This document shows positions 25,663 through 36,347 of a DNA stretch of 64,000 nucleotides, one piece after another; position 1 is the stretch's first letter; the number at the start of each line of letters is the position of its first letter. The notes beneath the pieces are model-generated. The model did no database searches, had not been told where the DNA came from, and saw nothing but the letters and a program-made list of their open reading frames with translations. The DNA comes from Trichodelitschia bisporula (taxonomy: Eukaryota). The stretch covers positions 1-64,000 of the forward strand of contig ML996713.1 in NCBI GenBank assembly GCA_010356995.1. The letters run 5' to 3'. Made by a program: the position numbers and the translations under genes.

Positions 25663-26418
25663 TCACCACATGCTGCTCCACATCTTGGGCGAGCGAGACC
25701 TCTCTGGCCCATTTGGATCATACTCCGGAGTCTGAGACTCCCTCACCCTCTCCGCTGCTCCCCACTGAACCTTCACCTGCCACGCAGGATTCATGCGGCC
25801 CATGTATACCGACCACAGCCGCGGGAGGAACTGAACGTCCTCCGCACAGTACTTCTTCAGCGCCTCGGGCAGCGGGCGCTGGTTGAATACCTCATAGGCG
25901 CCTCCGCGCTCCGGCGCAAACATCGCCTTCCCATGATCCTTGGATTGTTGCCATGCCGCTTTTTCGCTCGGGGAAAGATTGGCGTGCTCTTCCACGCACT
26001 TGGTGAGACCGCTTAAGAACTTCTTTGAGTAGTGGCGCGTGGCGAGTTCCATGAGCTGAACGTCGTGAACACCGGCGAGAGAAATGCCGAAGAGGGAGAA
26101 CATGGCATCGGAATCGTTCCGGACATCGAAGAAGACCTTCGGAATGTTTGGTGATTCGAGGATGAACTTCAGGGTTTGGCCCGACTCAGTCGCCGTTGTG
26201 AAGGCGGACGCACCGAGGCTGTAGACATCGATGAGGTAGGTGGTGTTCTTGGTGCTGACATGGATTTGTAGGATTGAGATCGTGCCTGTCCGACCCAGAT
26301 TGATCCCCTCAACATCGAGGTAAAGGGAGGGTGGGGACGTTGGGAGTCCGGTAATATCGCGGAGGAGCTCAGTGACTTGGACAGGATTGTCGATGAAGTG
26401 CACGGTAGGAGAAGCCAT
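25663..26418 (-). CDS. Stand-alone 3'-5' exonuclease (DEDDy, EXD1/Egalitarian-like)
   Basis: ExoI LYLDVEG, ExoII FFDVRNDSD, DVQLME and ExoIII YCAEDV; intronless 251-aa ORF. Confidence 0.9.
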   Translation of the reverse strand: MASPTVHFIDNPVQVTELLRDITGLPTSPPSLYLDVEGINLGRTGTISILQIHVSTKNTTYLIDVYSLGASAFTTATESGQTLKFILESPNIPKVFFDVRNDSDAMFSLFGISLAGVHDVQLMELATRHYSKKFLSGLTKCVEEHANLSPSEKAAWQQSKDHGKAMFAPERGGAYEVFNQRPLPEALKKYCAEDVQFLPRLWSVYMGRMNPAWQVKVQWGAAERVRESQTPEYDPNGPERSRSPKMWSSMW

Positions 26419-27118: not shown

Positions 27119-27550
27119 CTACGAAGCGTGATACCGTATCTTATCATACCCGGCGATGGTTCTGCTAATCCCATCCACAACCTCCTGCTCCTCCACCGAC
27201 CAATACCCCACCGGCATGCTTCTCCAGCCCTCGACAGTAACAGTAACTTCCTTCAGCAGCGCATTGGCCTGAAACTTCAACTCCTCCCGGCGCGGTCGCT
27301 CCGCATCAACGCAGTTCTCCATTCCCCAAATCATGATATCCAGTGCGTACATCTGCCGCAGCAAGCCCGCGCACCGCGCCACGTGCTTCACCTTCGCGGC
27401 TTCGAAGGCGGCATCACTACTGATAGTGCGACTTTGGGGCCTCAGGGATTTACGGCTGATAGTCGAGGCCCGCTTGTGTTCGATGGCGGGAATGGCTTCT
27501 TTGGTAGGCCGGGGCTCGGGACCATCGTTGCGTTCCCACGGCCAGCGCAT
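27119..27550 (-). CDS. Small predicted all-helical hypothetical protein (about 143 aa; N-terminus uncertain)
   Basis: ORF with amphipathic helical pattern LLRQMYALDIMIW...ANALLKEV..TV..W...WSVEEQEVVDGI and start context AGCACCATG. The frame stays open upstream to about 27710. Confidence 0.65.
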   Translation of the reverse strand: MRWPWERNDGPEPRPTKEAIPAIEHKRASTISRKSLRPQSRTISSDAAFEAAKVKHVARCAGLLRQMYALDIMIWGMENCVDAERPRREELKFQANALLKEVTVTVEGWRSMPVGYWSVEEQEVVDGISRTIAGYDKIRYHAS

Positions 27551-28746
27551 GGTGCTAGATTGTTGCTTCAATTCGTGGATTGCCGAAGAAACAACATATG
27601 GCTGGATACTTGAGGCGTACCCAATTTGACGGCTCGCTGTTGAACTGGTACTGGATGAAGGCCCAGATAGCGTCAGGCGGAGCCGTGTGCTAGGCCTAGC
27701 AGGACTTGGAGTACTGTCGTAGATTGTCAGAGATAATTATCAACATCAGCAGCCTGGCCGCATCAGAGTACTATGGCGCCTCACATCACCTTTGACAAGT
27801 CCGAAAAGCGTCAAGCGCGAGCAGCTGTGAGAGAGCAGTCAGGGCCAAAGTCTGTTCGTACAAGCAAAAGAAAAGATTGAAGAGTCGCCAACGGTCGTTG
27901 ACGCTGTCAAATTGGAAAACCTTCGCGAAGTTGCTGTGCAAAGCTCGACTCTCATAGCCTTACCTCACCTGCTTCACCCTCCTCAGCCCCAGCGCGAAAG
28001 CGGGAGACAGCTTCCCCCGCAGGTGACAGGACCAAGGCTGAGCACCCACACCAACGCACAGACCAGGCGGAGAGGCTGCAGGGTTTCCAGGCTGGCACGG
28101 GTGCGGACGCGATGCAGCACGGCGAGGACTTGTAGGGATTGGTTGCGAAGTGAGTTCGGAGGACGGGTATGCAGGATACGTGTTCGATGGGCGTACATTG
28201 TTGAGTAGATTTGAGGCCGTGGATGATTCTAATGGTTGGAGTTGGCCTTGTCGTCATGTTGGGCTTGCCAAGCGAATGTCCGCATCGCTGGACGAGGCTA
28301 GATAGTGGGGCGCGAACAGAACGAGAATGCAAGATAGGGAGGCTAATTGCTGCACGCTCTGTATCTGGCGAGTCGTGCGGGATTTTGCGGGTTTCCGTAC
28401 TGAGGAACGCCTCCCTGATCCGCATCAGCCTGATTAAATTCAAGTTGACGTGGTTGAGATAGGCTGCATATCAGTGGGGTGCCCACAGACGAAGGAGGGA
28501 TCGGCCCGCATCGTATCGAGGCACTCACTTGATCCAAGCTAGAATATGGTTTGCCTTGCCTCGATTAACTAGTCTGTAGCCCGAAATGACCTGCACATCC
28601 CAGCTCGTCCGCTTAGGCCGCAGTCGAGTGTGAGGAGGGGAAGCGGCTCGGAAGCGGTACCTTGTACTGTGCTAGCAAACCAGGCATATCGCACCGAGCC
28701 GTACAAATGTAATCTATGCTATGCCCGCCTAGAACAAATCTTGCTT

Positions 28747-31092
28747 CTAAAGGTTGGTTGCAAAGTGCGCCAGAACGTCGTGCTTATGTATGATCGTCAC
28801 ATCAACCCGCTTGTCCACCACGATCATAGCCTCGACTTCAGCGCTATAGGGGTGGCGCACTCCACTTCGACGCTTGCCCGACTGCAAGTTTTGAACTGGA
28901 ATCCTCGAAAGATCAATTGCTAGATTGTGGACCTGACTGTCTCCTGAAATGTCTGCGCGTTAGCAGTTACTCGTAACCCTTTGCATCGCCCAGCCGAGGG
29001 CACTAACCTTGCGGGAGCTCCCGCAGCACCGTCGGCGGATCATCCATGCCGGTTGTAGTAAAGTCCAGGCTCAACTTCCCCCCTTCCTCATAATGCTTCT
29101 TTGTGAAATTGAGGCGGATGGGATATCTCTGGATCAGGGGATCGCCGGGGAAGATGACATCGCCTTTGTTCACCATCCAGGTGATCTGGTCGGTAACTTG
29201 GCGTTGACCATGATATGCGTTCTTAACAGCCTTTTGCTTGAAGTCGCGCCAATTTTCGTACGACCGCGAGACGCAAACGCCATATGAGCGACGGCATATC
29301 CAGACCTTAGAGGCGATACCGGCTCCCATGCCGATGGCTTTGAGGACGGCACCTTTGGCCACGCCGCCCCAGCTACATTCAGTCAGATTGAGTGCATAAA
29401 GGGTAGTGTACAAACCAGTCCTGGGCCCTTTTAACATCTATTTGATAGCCGGACGCCCAGTTCTTGACGGAACGCAGCAGGTATTCGTTTTCGGAGAAGC
29501 CCCCGGCCATAAACACGTTCTGAACCGCGTAAGCACCACACGTTGTCAAGCGTTCCAACTGACCGTGACCTGACAGTGCACACCATGGCTAATCGTCGAT
29601 TGAACTTGCCCCATCTGCCGTGCGATGAGTGCCACAGTTTCATCCACGCTATAACTGAAGATCTCTTTCATGTCGGCACTCGGGAAGTCAGCACACTCAG
29701 CACCAACGGGCGACACATACCCAGTGAGTCGCATCATTCCCGCCTGGATGGCGTCTGGATACTCCGGGGTAGCCACTGCTCCTCGAGGAAGCTGCAGCGT
29801 ACATCCACGGTCGACAGACGCGAACGCCCGCTTGTGTGGCTCAAAGCTGGCAAGACAGACTCTGGCCACCTTGCTCATCGCAGTGTGGCCGCCAGCGCCT
29901 AGATCGTGGGGTGGAAGCTTCACGTTCGTGATCCGCCTCGAAAGCCAGCGGAGGAAGCCTCTGTCGACATACGTTGCTCCGCATTGAGCCCCTTTTACCA
30001 TGTTAGTGGATCCTTCCAGCGGCAAATACACTAACCCGCGGGTGCTCCGATGATCTTCAGTTCGAGTGGGTCTAGACATTCTACCTGGTATGCCACCAGG
30101 TCAACCGTGCCGCCACCGCAATCGCAAACGATAAAGCAATCACCCCCAACTAGCGTATTGAGGTCGCGGCCCAACAAGTCTCGGATAGTGTACAAAGCGC
30201 AGGCTTCGGGTTCGGTGGTGACGAAGATATTGCGGAGGAGCGGTAGCATTTGATTTGTAAAGGAACCAAGCACAGCACGGACTGTTTTGTTTTTCGCCTC
30301 GTACGTCCAGCCCTGCGCCATTAGCGGACACCCTGATTATAAAGACGTTGCTTACCGCGGGATGTGTAACGACAACGTCCACTGGAACATTTTCAAGTAG
30401 ATGAGACTGCTTGCTTTGGACAAACCTGTACCAGTGTCTGGCGACCTTTGCGAGATAGTCCCGAATGATGTCCTCGTCATTGCGGGCGAGGTGTCGCGGC
30501 GGGTCTAGCGTGCTTCCCTCTTGGAGCTTGTTGGCCAATCTCATCCCCTTGGTCAGCTCCAGAAGCTTTTCTAACTCCTTCAGCGGTGAACGCCCCTGGA
30601 GCTCAAGCTTCGTCCATTGTAGTGCAACGTTCGCGGTTGCGGGGTCGATGGAATGTCCCCATTGGTGATATTGGCCTGAGGATCGGGAGTAAGAAAGCAC
30701 GGATGGGACTTTAGTTTCCTTTCTCTCCGGCCAGTCGCTGAAGCATTGGACCTGGTCCAAGGTGGGCTCGGAGACATCATCGCTTATTTGAGCCCAGGCC
30801 AGACCTAACGCTGTCAGAGAAGTCGGAAACTTGCGGAGTCCTCACCAGTGAATGTTGTGCCATAGTCGATGCCGACAACCACGTACGGCCCTGCGTCGCC
30901 GGTGGAAGCAGCCATCGCTTCTGAAGTTGAAGGCACCAACTCGCGCCTAGCGGGTATTCCTTCGTTGATCGAGATCCTAGAGGATCTTCTTCTGGGAATC
31001 GGGGTCCTAAGTGATATTCCTTCGGGATAGGCGTATTTCTTTGACCACGATGGGCCGCGTGGACCTTTACCAGCACCGGAACTGGAGGACAT
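28747..31092 (-). CDS. Atypical Hsp70-superfamily (HSPA12-like) actin-fold ATPase
   Basis: Spliced over 7 introns: VVGIDYGTTFTG, VVTHPAGW, TEPEACAL, IVCDCGGGTVD, CGATYVD, VFMAGGFSENEYL, VAKGAV, RRSYGV, WMVNKGDVI. Ends AHFATNL* at 28747-28749 with no EEVD. The start could alternatively be the Met of MAASTG. Confidence 0.9.
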
Positions 31093-31286
31093 TCGTGAGG
31101 GGCGTAGCGGTAGCAGCGGATCTTGTGGTCCACCTAACAGTGATATCCTTTAGGGAGGGTAAAAAGTCCGCGCCATTCTGGTGGCTACATACCCGTAGGG
31201 GGCGTCTGCCATGATATTGAGCAGCAGCGGGACAAGCATCTGGTTGACAAGGCTAGCTGTGGCGCTTCTTTGACAAGGATGCCGGT

Positions 31287-32840
31287 GTGTCGGCGGTTAG
31301 TGCAGCCTCGCCTCTCCACAGCACCTGCAGTTACATGCTGCGGGTGCTGCAGGGTTATGGGCCGCCAGCGAGGCAGATACATTTTGTGCCCCCGCATGGG
31401 GCCAAGAGGGACACAGCTGAAAGCGACACCGTCGGACTTCCTGGCCGCAAGGCTATCGCTCCAGCGCCCGCACGGTCGTGGGACCAACCCCTCCGAACTC
31501 CGCAACTTCTTCTTCATAACTTTCGCTTTGTTATCATTCCCGTGCTGATTATGAAGCTATCGAGGACCCCTGCATCCGAAGTGCGACGGGAGTATGATGA
31601 GCGAATTGAAGATTTCTTGAAGAGTGTCGGGGTGGGCTCCTCGAGGTGGAGGCCCACTTTCTCACAACAAGAACCGGTCTTGTCCCAGTTTATCCGATGG
31701 GGGGAGCAAACTTACAGGCAAAACGGCCTCCTGGAAGAAACAACATCTAAGGCATCGAACGAGCTGACGCGGTGTCAGAAGCGCAATGACGAGCTGGAGG
31801 AGAGACTCCGCAGAATGCAGCAACAGCTGGATGACGAGATCGCGAAGAACGAAAGGATGGCAGAGCGGAACAGCGCGATGGTGATAGAACATTCGAGGAG
31901 CTTGCAGGCGCAAGCAAGCGAGCACAAAAGGCGCGAGAACAAGCTGCTCGGCCAGCTCATGGTCAATCATGAGGACAGCCTCGGGTGGGCCGACGACGTT
32001 CTGAGGGTCCGGTTTCTCGACCTGAAACGCCAGCTGGATGAGTTGACGTCGAAGAGCGAACTCAGGCTTGAGCCGCATCGTAGATTGGGATCAAGACTCG
32101 ACCCGAATGGCTTCATCGAGCGGAACGGGACGGACCAGGCCCATTTTTTGCTCAGAAGCTCCATCTGGCGCATCCTAAAGCATCAGTTCTTCTCACAACC
32201 GTTCGGGTTCGGCGTCCTGGGCCGCGGTGACGGGTATAGTCAGCTGTTAAGCACCTTTTCCTCATGGCAAGGCCTCGTTTCCGGGAATTCCGCAGCAGGT
32301 GAGTTTCCGGAGCACATCAAAGATGGCGCTGACTTCCCAGACTCTCTTGACCGGCTCAAGCACGATAGACTGGCTAATAACTGGCGGATGGCAACGTTTC
32401 AGTACATCCACTCCATCGTTACTACTGAGCGCCCGGACCACGGTGTCATTCCAGTGAGCAGATACTACGCCGCGAACGTCGAGTCTAGCATAACCTTCAT
32501 CTGGGACTTCCTGTCGGGCATTGTGAAATTGTGCAACGGCAAGCTATGGGAAACAGCCGAGCGGGAAATCAGACAGATTGTGCGCCTCGTTGGCGAGATT
32601 GCGCTCCAGTTCGGGATGCAGAGCGCTCATCTAGAGCTGTTCGAGCCTAAGTTTAAAGACGAAATCAAGATCGGGGATGACTTTGAGGACTGCGAGAACA
32701 AGGATATGGACAGAGGCATGAAGTTCGAGGTTCACCTTGTGACGCTGCCCGGGCTGCGGAAGATTGGAGATGGACGGACAGACATGAGGACGCCGCGGAC
32801 CATCGTGGCATGCGGCATATATCCGCTGCGCGAAGCGTAG
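31287..32840 (+). CDS. Coiled-coil protein with helical core and short C-terminal beta domain (GrpE-like by inference); true start uncertain
   Basis: 517-codon ORF with a heptad stretch LEETTSKASNELTRCQKRNDELEERLRRMQQQLDDEIAKNERM. Later motifs DDVLRVRFLDL, IWRILKHQFF, ANNWRMAT and VHLVTLPGLRKIGDG; in-frame intron 32299-32340. Confidence 0.8.
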   Translation: MSAVSAASPLHSTCSYMLRVLQGYGPPARQIHFVPPHGAKRDTAESDTVGLPGRKAIAPAPARSWDQPLRTPQLLLHNFRFVIIPVLIMKLSRTPASEVRREYDERIEDFLKSVGVGSSRWRPTFSQQEPVLSQFIRWGEQTYRQNGLLEETTSKASNELTRCQKRNDELEERLRRMQQQLDDEIAKNERMAERNSAMVIEHSRSLQAQASEHKRRENKLLGQLMVNHEDSLGWADDVLRVRFLDLKRQLDELTSKSELRLEPHRRLGSRLDPNGFIERNGTDQAHFLLRSSIWRILKHQFFSQPFGFGVLGRGDGYSQLLSTFSSWQGLVSGNSAAGEFPEHIKDGADFPDSLDRLKHDRLANNWRMATFQYIHSIVTTERPDHGVIPVSRYYAANVESSITFIWDFLSGIVKLCNGKLWETAEREIRQIVRLVGEIALQFGMQSAHLELFEPKFKDEIKIGDDFEDCENKDMDRGMKFEVHLVTLPGLRKIGDGRTDMRTPRTIVACGIYPLREA

Positions 32841-34088
32841 GTAGTTGATCGTACAATCACCGGCAATGAGGTTTGTTTTGGACGTTTGGAGTTCAGATAA
32901 TCGTGGCCGACCTGTTGATGTACGTACTGTATTAAGTTGTGGATGCATTGGAGATGAAAGTCGAGTCTACGTAGTACTACGATGGCGTCCGAAGGTGCGC
33001 GATGCGCCAGCACTGACCATGCCTGGGACGACTTCATCCCATCCCCATCCCTCGAAACCTTCCACATCACCATTCTTACTGCTTCATATACTTCTCAGCA
33101 CGCATTCTCTTTGTTATCTTAAGTACCTTTGCTATCCAGCCATATCATACGGCATCTACTGTCCCAACCGACTTCGCAATGCCCAAAGGCAATAAGCAAC
33201 CCAAAAAGTGAGGCTGCACTGCACCCTGCGTCTTTCTTCCCCGCCGTGCCCGCATGCAATTCAACGCCCTTGAGCAACATTGTTCCGAGCTCGCTGCACT
33301 GACGGATAATGCATCTTCAAATGATCTTTCTTACATACCATAGTATGCCGTTGGTTCAAGCAATTCAACTGAATCACCGGCGATCTTCGAAGAGACTGTA
33401 CTCGTACTCTACAGGGCGCCCACACTGACCAGTTAACTTCAGCACGACCATTATCAAATTTCATTAGCAGCCGGTCACCTGGATCGAAGGCAGCCGTCTG
33501 CCCTCTTCGGTACGCACAGTTTCCCAAGTGCCGCTCTTTGCATGTACTGAAGGCGGGCTTATGGTTCCCATATCTGGTCTCACTTCCGCTTTTCAAGTCA
33601 CACCGAGGTCCCATGTTGATTCTCCGGACGCTGTGATTCCCCGCGCAGACTTTCGAGACCTGCTGCCTCCAAAATGGTGTATCAGGCTTTGGGCCAGCAG
33701 ATGGCGGGAACGCCACAGTCCACATCCCGTGTGTGAGTCGCCAGCCCAAAACTGCATATGTTTGCCAGCGCCTGCAGCCCCCACTCTATCCCCCCGTCAG
33801 GCTGAATGCCGAGCTTCCAATCCAAGAAGACCCGCTGGCTGCATACTGTATTAGTGCGCCCGCCTCAAGTCAGCCGTACAACCCCGGACGCCGCTCTTCG
33901 CCAAAGCCTACCACCCTTCTCCGTCTACTACGGTACCGCGGAGCATCCCAGCGCACGGGCTCTGGCGAGGCTATCCACGAACCCGACTTTATACCATCTT
34001 GCATTCTGAGATACGAGATCTCAGTCATTGTTCATTCTTTGTCTTTGAAACGGCCAACTCTCCGAACGGTATGTCCTCTGCATAAGGG

Positions 34089-36347
34089 ATGCTCGGACGC
34101 GCCATGCCTTTCGGCATCCACCTCAAATTTGGTCGCAGGCTCTCCACCTCTCCCATTACCGCCCAGACTGACGCTGCTCATCGCGATCGCTGGCACCGAG
34201 CAGTGCAGGACTTCCGTTCGGTCACAAGCTACCTCGCGGGCGGTAAACCCCTCGACCCTCAACGCCTCGAGCCGCTAAAGCGTCCGACGAAAACCTACCT
34301 CGACTGGCTACAGCGCAGCGTCTTTCTCTACCCCGCCCAACAGGATGACCACCTCCTGGCGCTCGTCGAAGAGCACGCTTCTGTCTACGCCGGTGCACGA
34401 GATGCGGCCTTACTGGCGTGTCTCCACCATCTCTCCTCCAACGCCGCTATCAACAACCTCGCACTCCTAAGCTCCTCCGAGCCGACGCGGTATCTGCGAT
34501 GTGTGGTCCTGGCAGCAGCACTGAAGCCTGGTGTGATCTCAGCCGGCGGCCTGGGCGCCACACGGGCTCTGTTGCGAATATCCTCCAGCGCTGGCGTGGA
34601 CAGCGAGCTCCCAGCAGTGTTCCGCGAGCTAGTGCAGTGTATTGCTCAGGGCAACCCGGATGCCGCGCTGCCGCTGGATCTCATCAGCGTGGTACTCGCG
34701 CGGTCAGAGCTGCCGACGCGCTTGCAGACTCAGGTTGCGGAGTACATCCGGTGGGGCAAGTTCCTATCGCTGTTTCACATGGTTAGCTGGTTACAGGGTG
34801 CGCGGCGTCTGGCCAACGCAGAACGCGTGATGCCACTGCTCGACGACAGCTTGCCGTTGTGGCCGGCACTATCAGTTTGGAGGCCGGATGTGCACCGGCT
34901 GGCTGTGTGGGAGTCAGGCACGTTTGCAGATATCCAGCGGCTAAAGTTGATGCCTTACTTTGAGCTGGACGGCCCAGACACGGCGACCAAAGCAAAGGAA
35001 TCTTTACGTCTGTCGGAGCCCGCTTGCTACGCTCACGTTTCAGTCGAGATACGGAGTCCGCGGGGCCTTGAGCGGGTGTTGGAAGTTCTGCATCGGGCGT
35101 ATGGGGTCGGGCCGGGAGCGCTGGAGCTGTTCATCTATCAGTGTGTGGATTTTGCCGCGAACGAGGCTCGGCTCGGCATGGTTCATGCAGTCATCCAGCA
35201 ATGCGACGACAAGCTCTGCAAGGACCTTCTTCAACTTTTTGCAGCGCTTGACACGGATGGCTATCTGATACAACAGATGGTTGCCCTGACACAGGCGCTC
35301 TCTGCACTTAGGGACGGCAATATGCCGCAAAGCGCAGCCTTCCCAGCCGATCAAATCGCAGCCCGCTTGGCGTATATTGTGCGCCTCGCGACGCGCGAAT
35401 TTCAGACCCAGAGCCGTACCGGCACTGGCGAGTATCTCGGCATGCGCATCTTTCACCTCTGCCAGGCGGCAGTCTCCGTTCCATGGGTTGCCCCCTACCT
35501 CCCGGCGGAACTTAGAACTCATATTGCAACTTTCCCTCCGCAACACTCTCTCGAAACGATCTTCGACCATCTACAATCCGAAGCTCACTCCGTTTCTACC
35601 TCCAATTCTCGCTTTAAGGCTTACGTTTCGACTCTCCTCGGCGGTGCACCTCCCACGTCTCCGCCCACCAATCTATCCACCTTGACCAGGGAGCTCGCAT
35701 TCTGGGCAGCCCCGCCCGACTTCGCGCGCTCCGATTTTGCTCGTTCTCTGGCCCGCATCTCTACGCTCCCTTATGAGGTTTACACCACCCTCCTACACGC
35801 CACCCTCGTTGAGGAGAACCTGTACATAGCCGAGCTCACCGCCATAACGGCCCAGCCTCCCTCGGCGGCTGTTCCCACCCTCGCAGCCTACCTCATCCAT
35901 CGTCGACGGCTGTCCCAGCTTCAAGATGTCTGCTGGCTGCTACTGTTGGTACATTTCTCACAAGTGCCCGAAGCAGACTTTCCTCCCTGCCTCGTTGGCA
36001 CGGAGAACCTCGCGGCCGTCCTCGCTGTTCTCACTCCCCTTCTTTTGAGAGTGGCGGATTCGCTCCCACCGTCGGGCCCAGGGTTGACGCTAGTCCGCGT
36101 CAAACTATGGGAGAGGCTGGCGCAGCGGATTGTGTTTGGGGGAACGGAGAACCCGTTATGGATGTTTCTCGTGCCTGATGCAGATGTGAAGGTGATGGGT
36201 GCCGTTATCGAGGCGCTGGATCCAGGGCAAGATGTACCGCAGGAGATGAGGAGAGTTGCAGGGCAACTGAAGATGAATGGAGAGAACTTGGGTGCTGTCT
36301 GCCGAGTGTTTGAGAGGATGCTGAGTGTGTCCGGACGGAAGCAATGA
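34089..36347 (+). CDS. Hypothetical Leu/Ala-rich, probably helical protein (752 aa)
   Basis: 2.26-kb uninterrupted ORF with protein-like composition; no motif recognised. Confidence 0.75.
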   Translation: MLGRAMPFGIHLKFGRRLSTSPITAQTDAAHRDRWHRAVQDFRSVTSYLAGGKPLDPQRLEPLKRPTKTYLDWLQRSVFLYPAQQDDHLLALVEEHASVYAGARDAALLACLHHLSSNAAINNLALLSSSEPTRYLRCVVLAAALKPGVISAGGLGATRALLRISSSAGVDSELPAVFRELVQCIAQGNPDAALPLDLISVVLARSELPTRLQTQVAEYIRWGKFLSLFHMVSWLQGARRLANAERVMPLLDDSLPLWPALSVWRPDVHRLAVWESGTFADIQRLKLMPYFELDGPDTATKAKESLRLSEPACYAHVSVEIRSPRGLERVLEVLHRAYGVGPGALELFIYQCVDFAANEARLGMVHAVIQQCDDKLCKDLLQLFAALDTDGYLIQQMVALTQALSALRDGNMPQSAAFPADQIAARLAYIVRLATREFQTQSRTGTGEYLGMRIFHLCQAAVSVPWVAPYLPAELRTHIATFPPQHSLETIFDHLQSEAHSVSTSNSRFKAYVSTLLGGAPPTSPPTNLSTLTRELAFWAAPPDFARSDFARSLARISTLPYEVYTTLLHATLVEENLYIAELTAITAQPPSAAVPTLAAYLIHRRRLSQLQDVCWLLLLVHFSQVPEADFPPCLVGTENLAAVLAVLTPLLLRVADSLPPSGPGLTLVRVKLWERLAQRIVFGGTENPLWMFLVPDADVKVMGAVIEALDPGQDVPQEMRRVAGQLKMNGENLGAVCRVFERMLSVSGRKQ

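Follow-up and report, generated by a model that had tools for sequence, protein, structure and literature searches.

The 64,000-nucleotide (nt) stretch of Trichodelitschia bisporula DNA analysed here (NCBI GenBank assembly GCA_010356995.1, contig ML996713.1, positions 1 to 64,000 of the forward strand; referred to as the window) was found to carry three linked genes which very probably constitute a real and conserved functional module. These are a gene for an HSPA12-type Hsp70-like ATPase, a divergently transcribed gene for a larger-than-GrpE helical protein (the partner), and a small gene lying downstream of the ATPase gene. The module is conserved across classes of filamentous ascomycetes. 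On the basis of its modelled fold and its position beside an Hsp70-type ATPase, the partner may be a dedicated GrpE-like exchange or regulatory factor of the ATPase, a reading which is favoured here tentatively.

Gene organization and transcript evidence

The ATPase gene is encoded on the minus strand (ATG at 31092, stop at 28747) and has eight exons specifying a protein of 674 amino acids (aa), P0003. The partner gene is encoded on the plus strand (ATG at 31551, stop at 32840) and contains a single 42-nt intron (32299–32340), its product being a protein of 415 aa, P0001. The two start codons are separated by a 458-bp intergenic region (31093–31550), a putative bidirectional promoter, which agrees with the divergence across a few hundred bp described in an earlier reading of the sequence alone (the original prediction). 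The small gene, with a coding sequence (CDS) of 143 aa found in the list of open reading frames (ORFs), is located at 27550–27119 on the minus strand. All three genes were confirmed at the positions originally given, and their models are borne out by spliced RNA contigs.

The gene models were checked against contigs from two public runs, both belonging to one sample of one study. These contigs were taken as spliced RNA because the introns are absent from them, the RNA label itself being a guess of the tool. All seven introns of the ATPase gene (41–64 nt, GT..AG on the gene strand) are skipped by the contigs of both runs, and the splice pattern obtained is that of the annotated protein P0003. 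The partner intron is also skipped, confirming the annotated P0001; the partner contigs begin at 31382 or 31467, with low cover in the bin 31082–31395. In the small gene a 71-nt intron of the 5′ untranslated region (UTR) was identified at 27714–27784 (minus) from a contig joint between 27713 and 27785 present in both runs. This intron reads CT..AC on the forward strand and GTGAGG...GACAG on the gene strand, and its splicing leaves the CDS unaffected. The transcript of the small gene extends to approximately 28255, positions 28256–28569 have no cover, and no contig joins this gene to the ATPase gene. Spliced contigs of the one sample cover the small, ATPase and partner genes as well as a fourth gene described below.

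The introns are unusually short in this genome (41–64 nt in the ATPase gene, at 28943–30845). Two of them, one each in the ATPase and partner genes, are in-frame and 42 nt long, with the result that the unspliced ORFs read through.

Linkage of the ATPase and partner genes

Metagenome contigs of the Joint Genome Institute (JGI) were scanned with the partner motif, derived from an alignment of 18 sequences, which gave 34 loci encoding a partner relative. A set of 89 Hsp70-like proteins and the small protein then served as queries against these loci. A locus was regarded as informative for the upstream side when at least 856 bp were free upstream of the partner gene (24 of the 34 loci, the other ten being too short). 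An Hsp70-like gene was present upstream of the partner in 18 of these 24, and in 17 it was on the opposite strand, that is, head-to-head. The gap between the two matches was 460–1415 bp in 16 of the 17 head-to-head loci and 3359 bp in L017, while in L021 the ATPase gene is located 2.8 kb upstream of the partner on the same strand. Three pairs of loci (L023/L024, L028/L029 and L005/L006) are likely duplicates, which reduces the count of distinct loci to about 16 of 21. No Hsp70-like gene was detected downstream of the partner in any of the 14 loci with at least 2.4 kb of downstream DNA. The pairing of ATPase and partner genes is far above chance, and the divergent pair that had been proposed is conserved in most informative loci. 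In fungi, conserved head-to-head gene pairs are seldom seen except in metabolic clusters.

A similar picture was obtained from annotated genomes. Both proteins could be assigned to a named species in 12 cases, and in nine of these the pair is found on equally long contigs (two of only 186 and 215 kb), which presumably represent the same contig. Bombardia has consecutive gene numbers for the pair (611369/611370), and in Echria the numbers differ by two (383808/383810). In Cercophora sp. LCS_1 and in Triangularia setosa the two listed proteins are encoded on separate contigs, and the pair of Rhypophila comes from different assemblies. Named relatives include proteins of Podospora, Apodospora, Bombardia and Fusarium. 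Orthologues are only 35–45% identical.

The ATPase

Hsp70s of the HSPA12 type are found in animals, in fungi and in some bacteria, with a massive expansion in bivalves. The ATPase is a member of the HSPA12 branch of the Hsp70 superfamily and, as judged from sequence comparison, shows homology to HSPA12A-like proteins over its length. Its phosphate-1 (GIDYGTT), phosphate-2 (DCGGGTVD) and adenosine (GGFS) motifs are all present, and in an alignment of 67 sequences the residues D76, G78, T79, T80, E266, E268, D296, G298–T301, D303, G459 and G460, which include the catalytic Glu, are invariant or nearly invariant. The family profile built from the 67 relatives matches the nucleotide-binding domain of DnaK (1dkg_D, E 3.8e-22), with the phosphate and adenosine motifs aligned to those of DnaK, and 120 PDB sequences were matched by it at E ≤ 0.001. 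The nucleotide-binding domain is accordingly of DnaK type in its motifs and looks to be in working order. When the family alignment was compared by hhalign with P0091, an HSPA12A-like mite protein, a probability of 100 and an E-value of 5.8e-46 were obtained over 511 columns. The span of this match (columns 11–573 of 637) includes the C-terminal domain. The protein terminates in ...HFATNL and has no EEVD, so that the original assignment (HSPA12-type, intact motifs, no EEVD) was borne out by the alignment, the profile and the C-terminus alike.

A word-indexed search gave 89 relatives of the ATPase, grading into fungal proteins bearing PF00012 and into the HSPA12A-like mite protein. P0003 alone was not matched by PF00012 (Pfam HSP70) at E ≤ 1, the family being carried by more distant relatives. 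A phmmer search of P0003 against PDB sequences gave no meaningful match, and a Pfam scan of the single ATPase exons gave nothing useful.

Seven loci with bacterial relatives of the ATPase were retrieved, and the ORFs of two were listed. A Pfam scan of 12 ORFs from the neighbourhood gave no GrpE match at E ≤ 0.001, and none of these ORFs was recognised as partner-like. On the Calothrix contig L035 (1812–9689) the ATPase relative, a double AAA ATPase and a second Hsp70-like gene form a single same-strand row, together with a 218-aa ORF of no recognised family overlapping the start of the ATPase relative; WD40 and radical-SAM genes flank the row. At L039 the ATPase relative is directly preceded by a DUF5615 gene and followed, after a few ORFs, by a PIN-domain gene, an arrangement resembling a conflict neighbourhood.

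The small gene

The small protein had no Pfam match and no PDB sequence match. Its conserved domain is the C-terminal part of approximately 100 aa. It is 44% identical over 103 aa (E 8e-28) to the C-terminal end of P0004, a Cudoniella protein of 928 aa in which the first 630 residues correspond to the ATPase, and it also matches the end of P0012, an 816-aa Tricladium protein. In P0004 and P0012, which are annotated proteins, the small protein is thus fused to or merged with the ATPase. Homologues of the small gene were detected by tblastn in 11 of the 34 loci, and in nine of the ten loci with enough DNA beyond the ATPase gene such a homologue is downstream of it on the same strand. The linkage of the small gene which had been suggested from the window alone extends to related loci and to the two fusions.

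Two loci were seen to differ in gene order. In L009 (3758–4102, minus) and L013 (1422–1766, minus) a gene whose product is weakly homologous to the small protein (26% identity over 117 aa, E 3e-8) sits after the partner in convergent orientation and not after the ATPase gene, the trio being clustered with its order changed.

The partner family and its predicted structure

An exhaustive phmmer search of 1.84 billion representatives gave a partner family of 284 representatives, 45 of them at E ≤ 1e-30; the word-indexed search had given one other relative only. All looked-up members with a source name are from filamentous ascomycetes, and the members listed in the ESM Atlas are Ascomycota as well. 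A scan of P0001 placed the partner in no Pfam family. A phmmer search of P0001 against PDB sequences gave no meaningful match, and the family profile gave generic coiled coils only among the 60 PDB matches listed.

The common core of the family is formed by the C-terminal ~280 residues, with an invariant FFSxPFGFGxLG motif, and the N-terminal helical part varies widely in length among relatives. Long forms of 900–1150 aa with N-terminal tandem repeats resembling LPPE(T/V)L..L are found in Sordariales. Four such proteins (P0106, P0108, P0112 and P0242; 938–1119 aa) have the repeats, a Pro/Ser-rich stretch and a much longer helical region before the conserved C-terminal domain. In none of 149 partner-family proteins, nor in P0004, is the partner fused to an Hsp70-like domain.

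The AlphaFold2 model of the partner, built from 85 sequences, has a mean predicted local distance difference test score (pLDDT) of 91.4 and consists of a helix of 96 residues (43–138), a helical region (148–342) and a beta domain (346–412). This matches the order of long helix, helical region and beta-rich tail expected from the original prediction. Since the long helix dominated the fold searches made with the full-length model, the domain 139–415 was also modelled alone, from the unspliced window translation and 80 aligned sequences, and was predicted with the same element order (pLDDT 92.3; predicted template-modelling score, pTM, 0.90).

Comparison of the partner with GrpE

GrpE is the homodimeric nucleotide-exchange factor of Hsp70, and in bacteria the grpE and dnaK genes often lie next to each other. 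In a search of the domain model against 48,161 representative chains, carried out independently of Foldseek, only nine chains reached a Z-score of at least 5, and ranks 2–4 were occupied by GrpE: human GrpEL1 (Z 5.7, root-mean-square deviation (rmsd) 5.1, 109 residues aligned), Geobacillus GrpE (Z 5.7, rmsd 4.0, 105 aligned) and E. coli GrpE (Z 5.3, rmsd 4.5, 101 aligned). When Foldseek's 987 best candidates were compared again, the top four were all GrpE (Z 6.9, 6.8, 6.4 and 6.0; rmsd 3.3–5.1, 97–115 residues aligned), with Thermus GrpE at Z 4.2. The range aligned in these four, GrpE residues ~79–217, comprises the bundle helices and the beta domain, nearly all of which are matched. With the full-length model, an alignment in order was obtained for 152 of the 159 residues of GrpEL1 (Z 5.3) and for 153 of the 168 residues of Thermus GrpE. 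From the aligned ranges and the secondary structure, the GrpE-like core of the partner would be made up of helix 148–166, helix 336–356 and the beta domain. The match carries weight because the family at the head of an unbiased list is one that had been named beforehand, for a protein encoded beside an Hsp70-type ATPase.

A number of observations weigh against reading the partner as a GrpE-like factor bound to this ATPase. All the GrpE Z-scores from the searches (5.3–6.9) are below 8, the level below which a match may reflect a common arrangement only; they are modest, and too low alone to serve as proof of a GrpE fold. The first rank among the 48,161 chains was taken by an ABC-transporter chain (Z 6.1). 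With the full-length model GrpE is found only at ranks 10, 16 and 22, with an rmsd of ~16 Å, and in a wide fold search of the same model, the rows of which were dominated by the long helix, GrpE is absent among the 50 matches listed. Foldseek searches of both partner models against PDB gave nothing at E ≤ 0.001 and GrpEL1 only at E ~0.9–1.2. Approximately 170 extra helical residues are inserted between the GrpE-like elements. At the level of sequence, PF01025 (GrpE) did not match P0001 or its closest relative, P0002, at E ≤ 1 and is absent among the 25 Pfam families listed for 80 partner-family members, and an hhalign comparison of the family alignment with E. coli GrpE, a single-sequence template giving low power, returned a probability of 0.44%. 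The heptad signal of the long helix is weak (0.43 compared with 0.29 overall), the model being that of a monomer only. In the ESM Atlas the named clusters closest to the partner are other families: PF24994, GIL1_IRKI_C (feature score 0.83; template-modelling (TM) scores 0.60 and 0.52), and PF16026, MIEAP (0.79; TM 0.53), where feature scores below 0.9 are leads only. Both families are absent from the Pfam scans of the partner and among the families listed for the 80 members.

The linkage data also contain points of this kind. No ATPase gene was found in six of the 24 informative loci (L005, L006, L020, L030, L032 and L033). L005 (9581–11285) carries a lone partner paralogue among housekeeping genes (a PIG-A glycosyltransferase, an MPN/JAB protein and a short-chain dehydrogenase), and the 9.5 kb upstream of it contain no Hsp70-like gene. 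Pairwise distances of ATPase and partner are uncorrelated in a Mantel test once the duplicate loci are removed (r 0.09, a value reached by 1524 of 5000 permutations), the r of 0.80 obtained with the duplicates being an artefact. In favour of the pair, both well-supported partner clades (L017+L021 and L016+L023) recur in the ATPase tree when maximum-likelihood trees of 11 pairs are compared. Co-divergence of the two proteins is only weakly shown by these sequences, the two clades speaking for it and the distances not.

The GrpE likeness originally proposed stands in part. GrpE is the best structural neighbour of the C-terminal domain; no sequence relation was found, the Z-scores fall short of 8, and the partner, at twice the size of GrpE, carries the large insertion.

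The fourth gene and neighbouring genes

A fourth gene, encoding a protein of 752 aa, is located at 34089–36347 on the plus strand (ORF list and RNA contigs), and its transcript has 5′ UTR introns near 33208–33442 and 33509–33563. The 752-aa protein matched no Pfam family at the curated cut-off, the one match at E ≤ 0.01 being TarS_linker below it (E 0.0085, 16.9 bits), and no PDB sequence; the ESM Atlas gave weak helical-repeat look-alikes only. By tblastn, homologues were detected downstream of the partner, in either orientation, in six of the 14 loci with at least 2.4 kb downstream, for example at L002 12779–14977, L010 15918–17471, L031 6566–8023 and L027 2471–4213. The module may thus have a fourth component in the 752-aa protein, with a looser linkage than that of the other three genes.

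On the other side, the module is adjoined by a gene for a 251-aa 3′–5′ exonuclease (PF01612, E 5e-16) at 25663–26418 (minus), which is not syntenic in related loci.

Proposed mechanism and alternative explanations

The arrangement is best explained as a conserved module of filamentous ascomycetes centred on the HSPA12-type Hsp70-like ATPase, in which an HSPA12-type C-terminal domain replaces the canonical substrate-binding domain and lid. ATPase and partner are transcribed divergently from a putative shared promoter region of ~0.5 kb. The partner may pair with itself through its long helix, and its GrpE-like core of two helices and a beta domain could then dock on the ATPase domain, so that the partner would act as the dedicated nucleotide-exchange or regulatory cofactor of the ATPase. 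The family-specific helical insertion with FFSxPFGFGxLG would add a function which GrpE lacks, and the small helical protein may be a further subunit or an adaptor.

The main rival to this proposal sees in the partner no nucleotide-exchange factor but a scaffold or adaptor built on a coiled coil, as in MIEAP or the plant GIL1–IRKI proteins, which would recruit the ATPase to a structure or, as a client or adaptor, be remodelled by it; its likeness to GrpE would then be that of a generic helix-plus-small-sheet arrangement. This is considered somewhat unlikely. It would account for the named neighbours in the ESM Atlas, for the modest GrpE Z-scores, for family members that stand alone, and for the long Sordariales forms, whose repeats, proline-rich stretches and longer helices are as found in scaffolds. 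However, the Atlas scores are below 0.9 and neither family appears in the Pfam scans, and a scaffold leaves unexplained why three independent GrpE representatives should occupy ranks 2–4 of 48,161 for a protein encoded beside an Hsp70-type ATPase. The scaffold and GrpE readings are also compatible with each other, as MIEAP-like domains could themselves be GrpE-like.

The two other explanations considered are both less likely than a GrpE-like cofactor or a scaffold. It is improbable that the genes are held together by a shared bidirectional promoter only, being co-expressed while their products make no contact. Short-spaced head-to-head pairs can indeed be conserved for regulation, but conservation here reaches a third gene beyond the ATPase gene and includes fusions of its product with the ATPase; the L021 pair has changed orientation and is still within 2.8 kb; and the partner fold points to an Hsp70 cofactor. 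Slightly more doubtful still is the idea that the module serves fungal conflict or non-self recognition, with the ATPase as a switch and the linked genes as sensors or effectors. Patchy sampling of the family and the low identity among orthologues would be in keeping with such a system, as would multiple copies within one genome (two of the Hsp70-like gene in Geoglossum umbratile, Apodospora and Podospora didyma, two of the partner gene in Echria and Apodospora) and the AAA ATPase, WD40 and PIN genes beside bacterial ATPase relatives. Against this, Pfam scans identified no toxin, nuclease, pore-forming, HET or NLR-type domain in the four window genes, and the window neighbours, such as the 3′–5′ exonuclease, are ordinary. 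Neither the conflict role, nor the accessory region, nor the small gene as a client or effector, all of which had been suggested originally, was shown by the analysis.

Relation to known systems and significance

The closest parallels to the proposed GrpE-like cofactor are DnaK–GrpE and mortalin–GrpEL1/Mge1, as an Hsp70-superfamily ATPase with intact motifs is here encoded beside a protein with the element order of GrpE. Among PDB structures the partner core superposes best on GrpE, at the modest Z-scores given above and with no sequence similarity. The differences are considerable. GrpE has ~200 aa compared with the 415 aa of the partner and its ~170-residue helical insertion bearing the invariant FFSxPFGFGxLG; the ATPase is without the canonical substrate-binding domain, lid and EEVD; and mortalin–GrpEL1/Mge1 is mitochondrial, whereas a mitochondrial location is not indicated for the fungal pair. 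With HSPA12A and HSPA12B the ATPase shares homology over the 511 columns, C-terminal domain included, and the absence of the helical lid in both. It differs from them in belonging to a fungal clade, in falling short of the Pfam HSP70 threshold and in having a linked candidate cofactor.

Other exchange-factor classes of eukaryotic Hsp70s include the BAG domain, HspBP1/Fes1 and Hsp110. These fill the same functional slot as that proposed for the partner, but the partner model goes beyond a three-helix bundle and has neither armadillo repeats nor an Hsp70 fold, and none of the three classes is present among the matches listed in the partner fold searches. MIEAP (PF16026) and GIL1/IRKI (PF24994) likewise combine a coiled coil with a C-terminal domain; their likeness to the partner is limited to scores of 0.79–0.83 and TM 0.52–0.60, with no Pfam match.

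In the portion of the recent review PMC13580251 available the function of HspA12 is given as 'presently unknown', and no HSPA12 cofactor is named in the available portions of that review or of a second one, PMC13149161. PMC3879978, as far as its accessible text extends, covers only the seven classical fungal Hsp70 subfamilies. In the literature, supplements aside, no description was found of the gene pair, of an HSPA12 cofactor or of a GrpE-like reading of MIEAP. What appears to be new here is an Hsp70-type ATPase and a partner which, by its model, is GrpE-shaped, unrelated to GrpE in sequence and much larger, occurring as a conserved gene module.

A wider claim may be considered, namely that the partner family represents a new class of GrpE-like exchange factors for HSPA12-type Hsp70s which cannot be recognised from sequence, with MIEAP and GIL1/IRKI as distant relatives, and that through it the cofactor still missing for HSPA12-type proteins in eukaryotes at large is revealed. 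This is regarded as unlikely on the evidence above. If the link to MIEAP and GIL1/IRKI were true, it would give a hint at the role of these poorly understood animal and plant proteins. For the fungi themselves, a GrpE-like partner would mean a private Hsp70-like machine of ATPase, exchange factor and small adaptor, perhaps with a large helical client. The gene pair names a concrete candidate for an HSPA12 cofactor, with a fold pointing to nucleotide exchange, and two further candidate components, and by this means the partners of HSPA12 and its possible Hsp70-like cycling become directly testable in culturable fungi.

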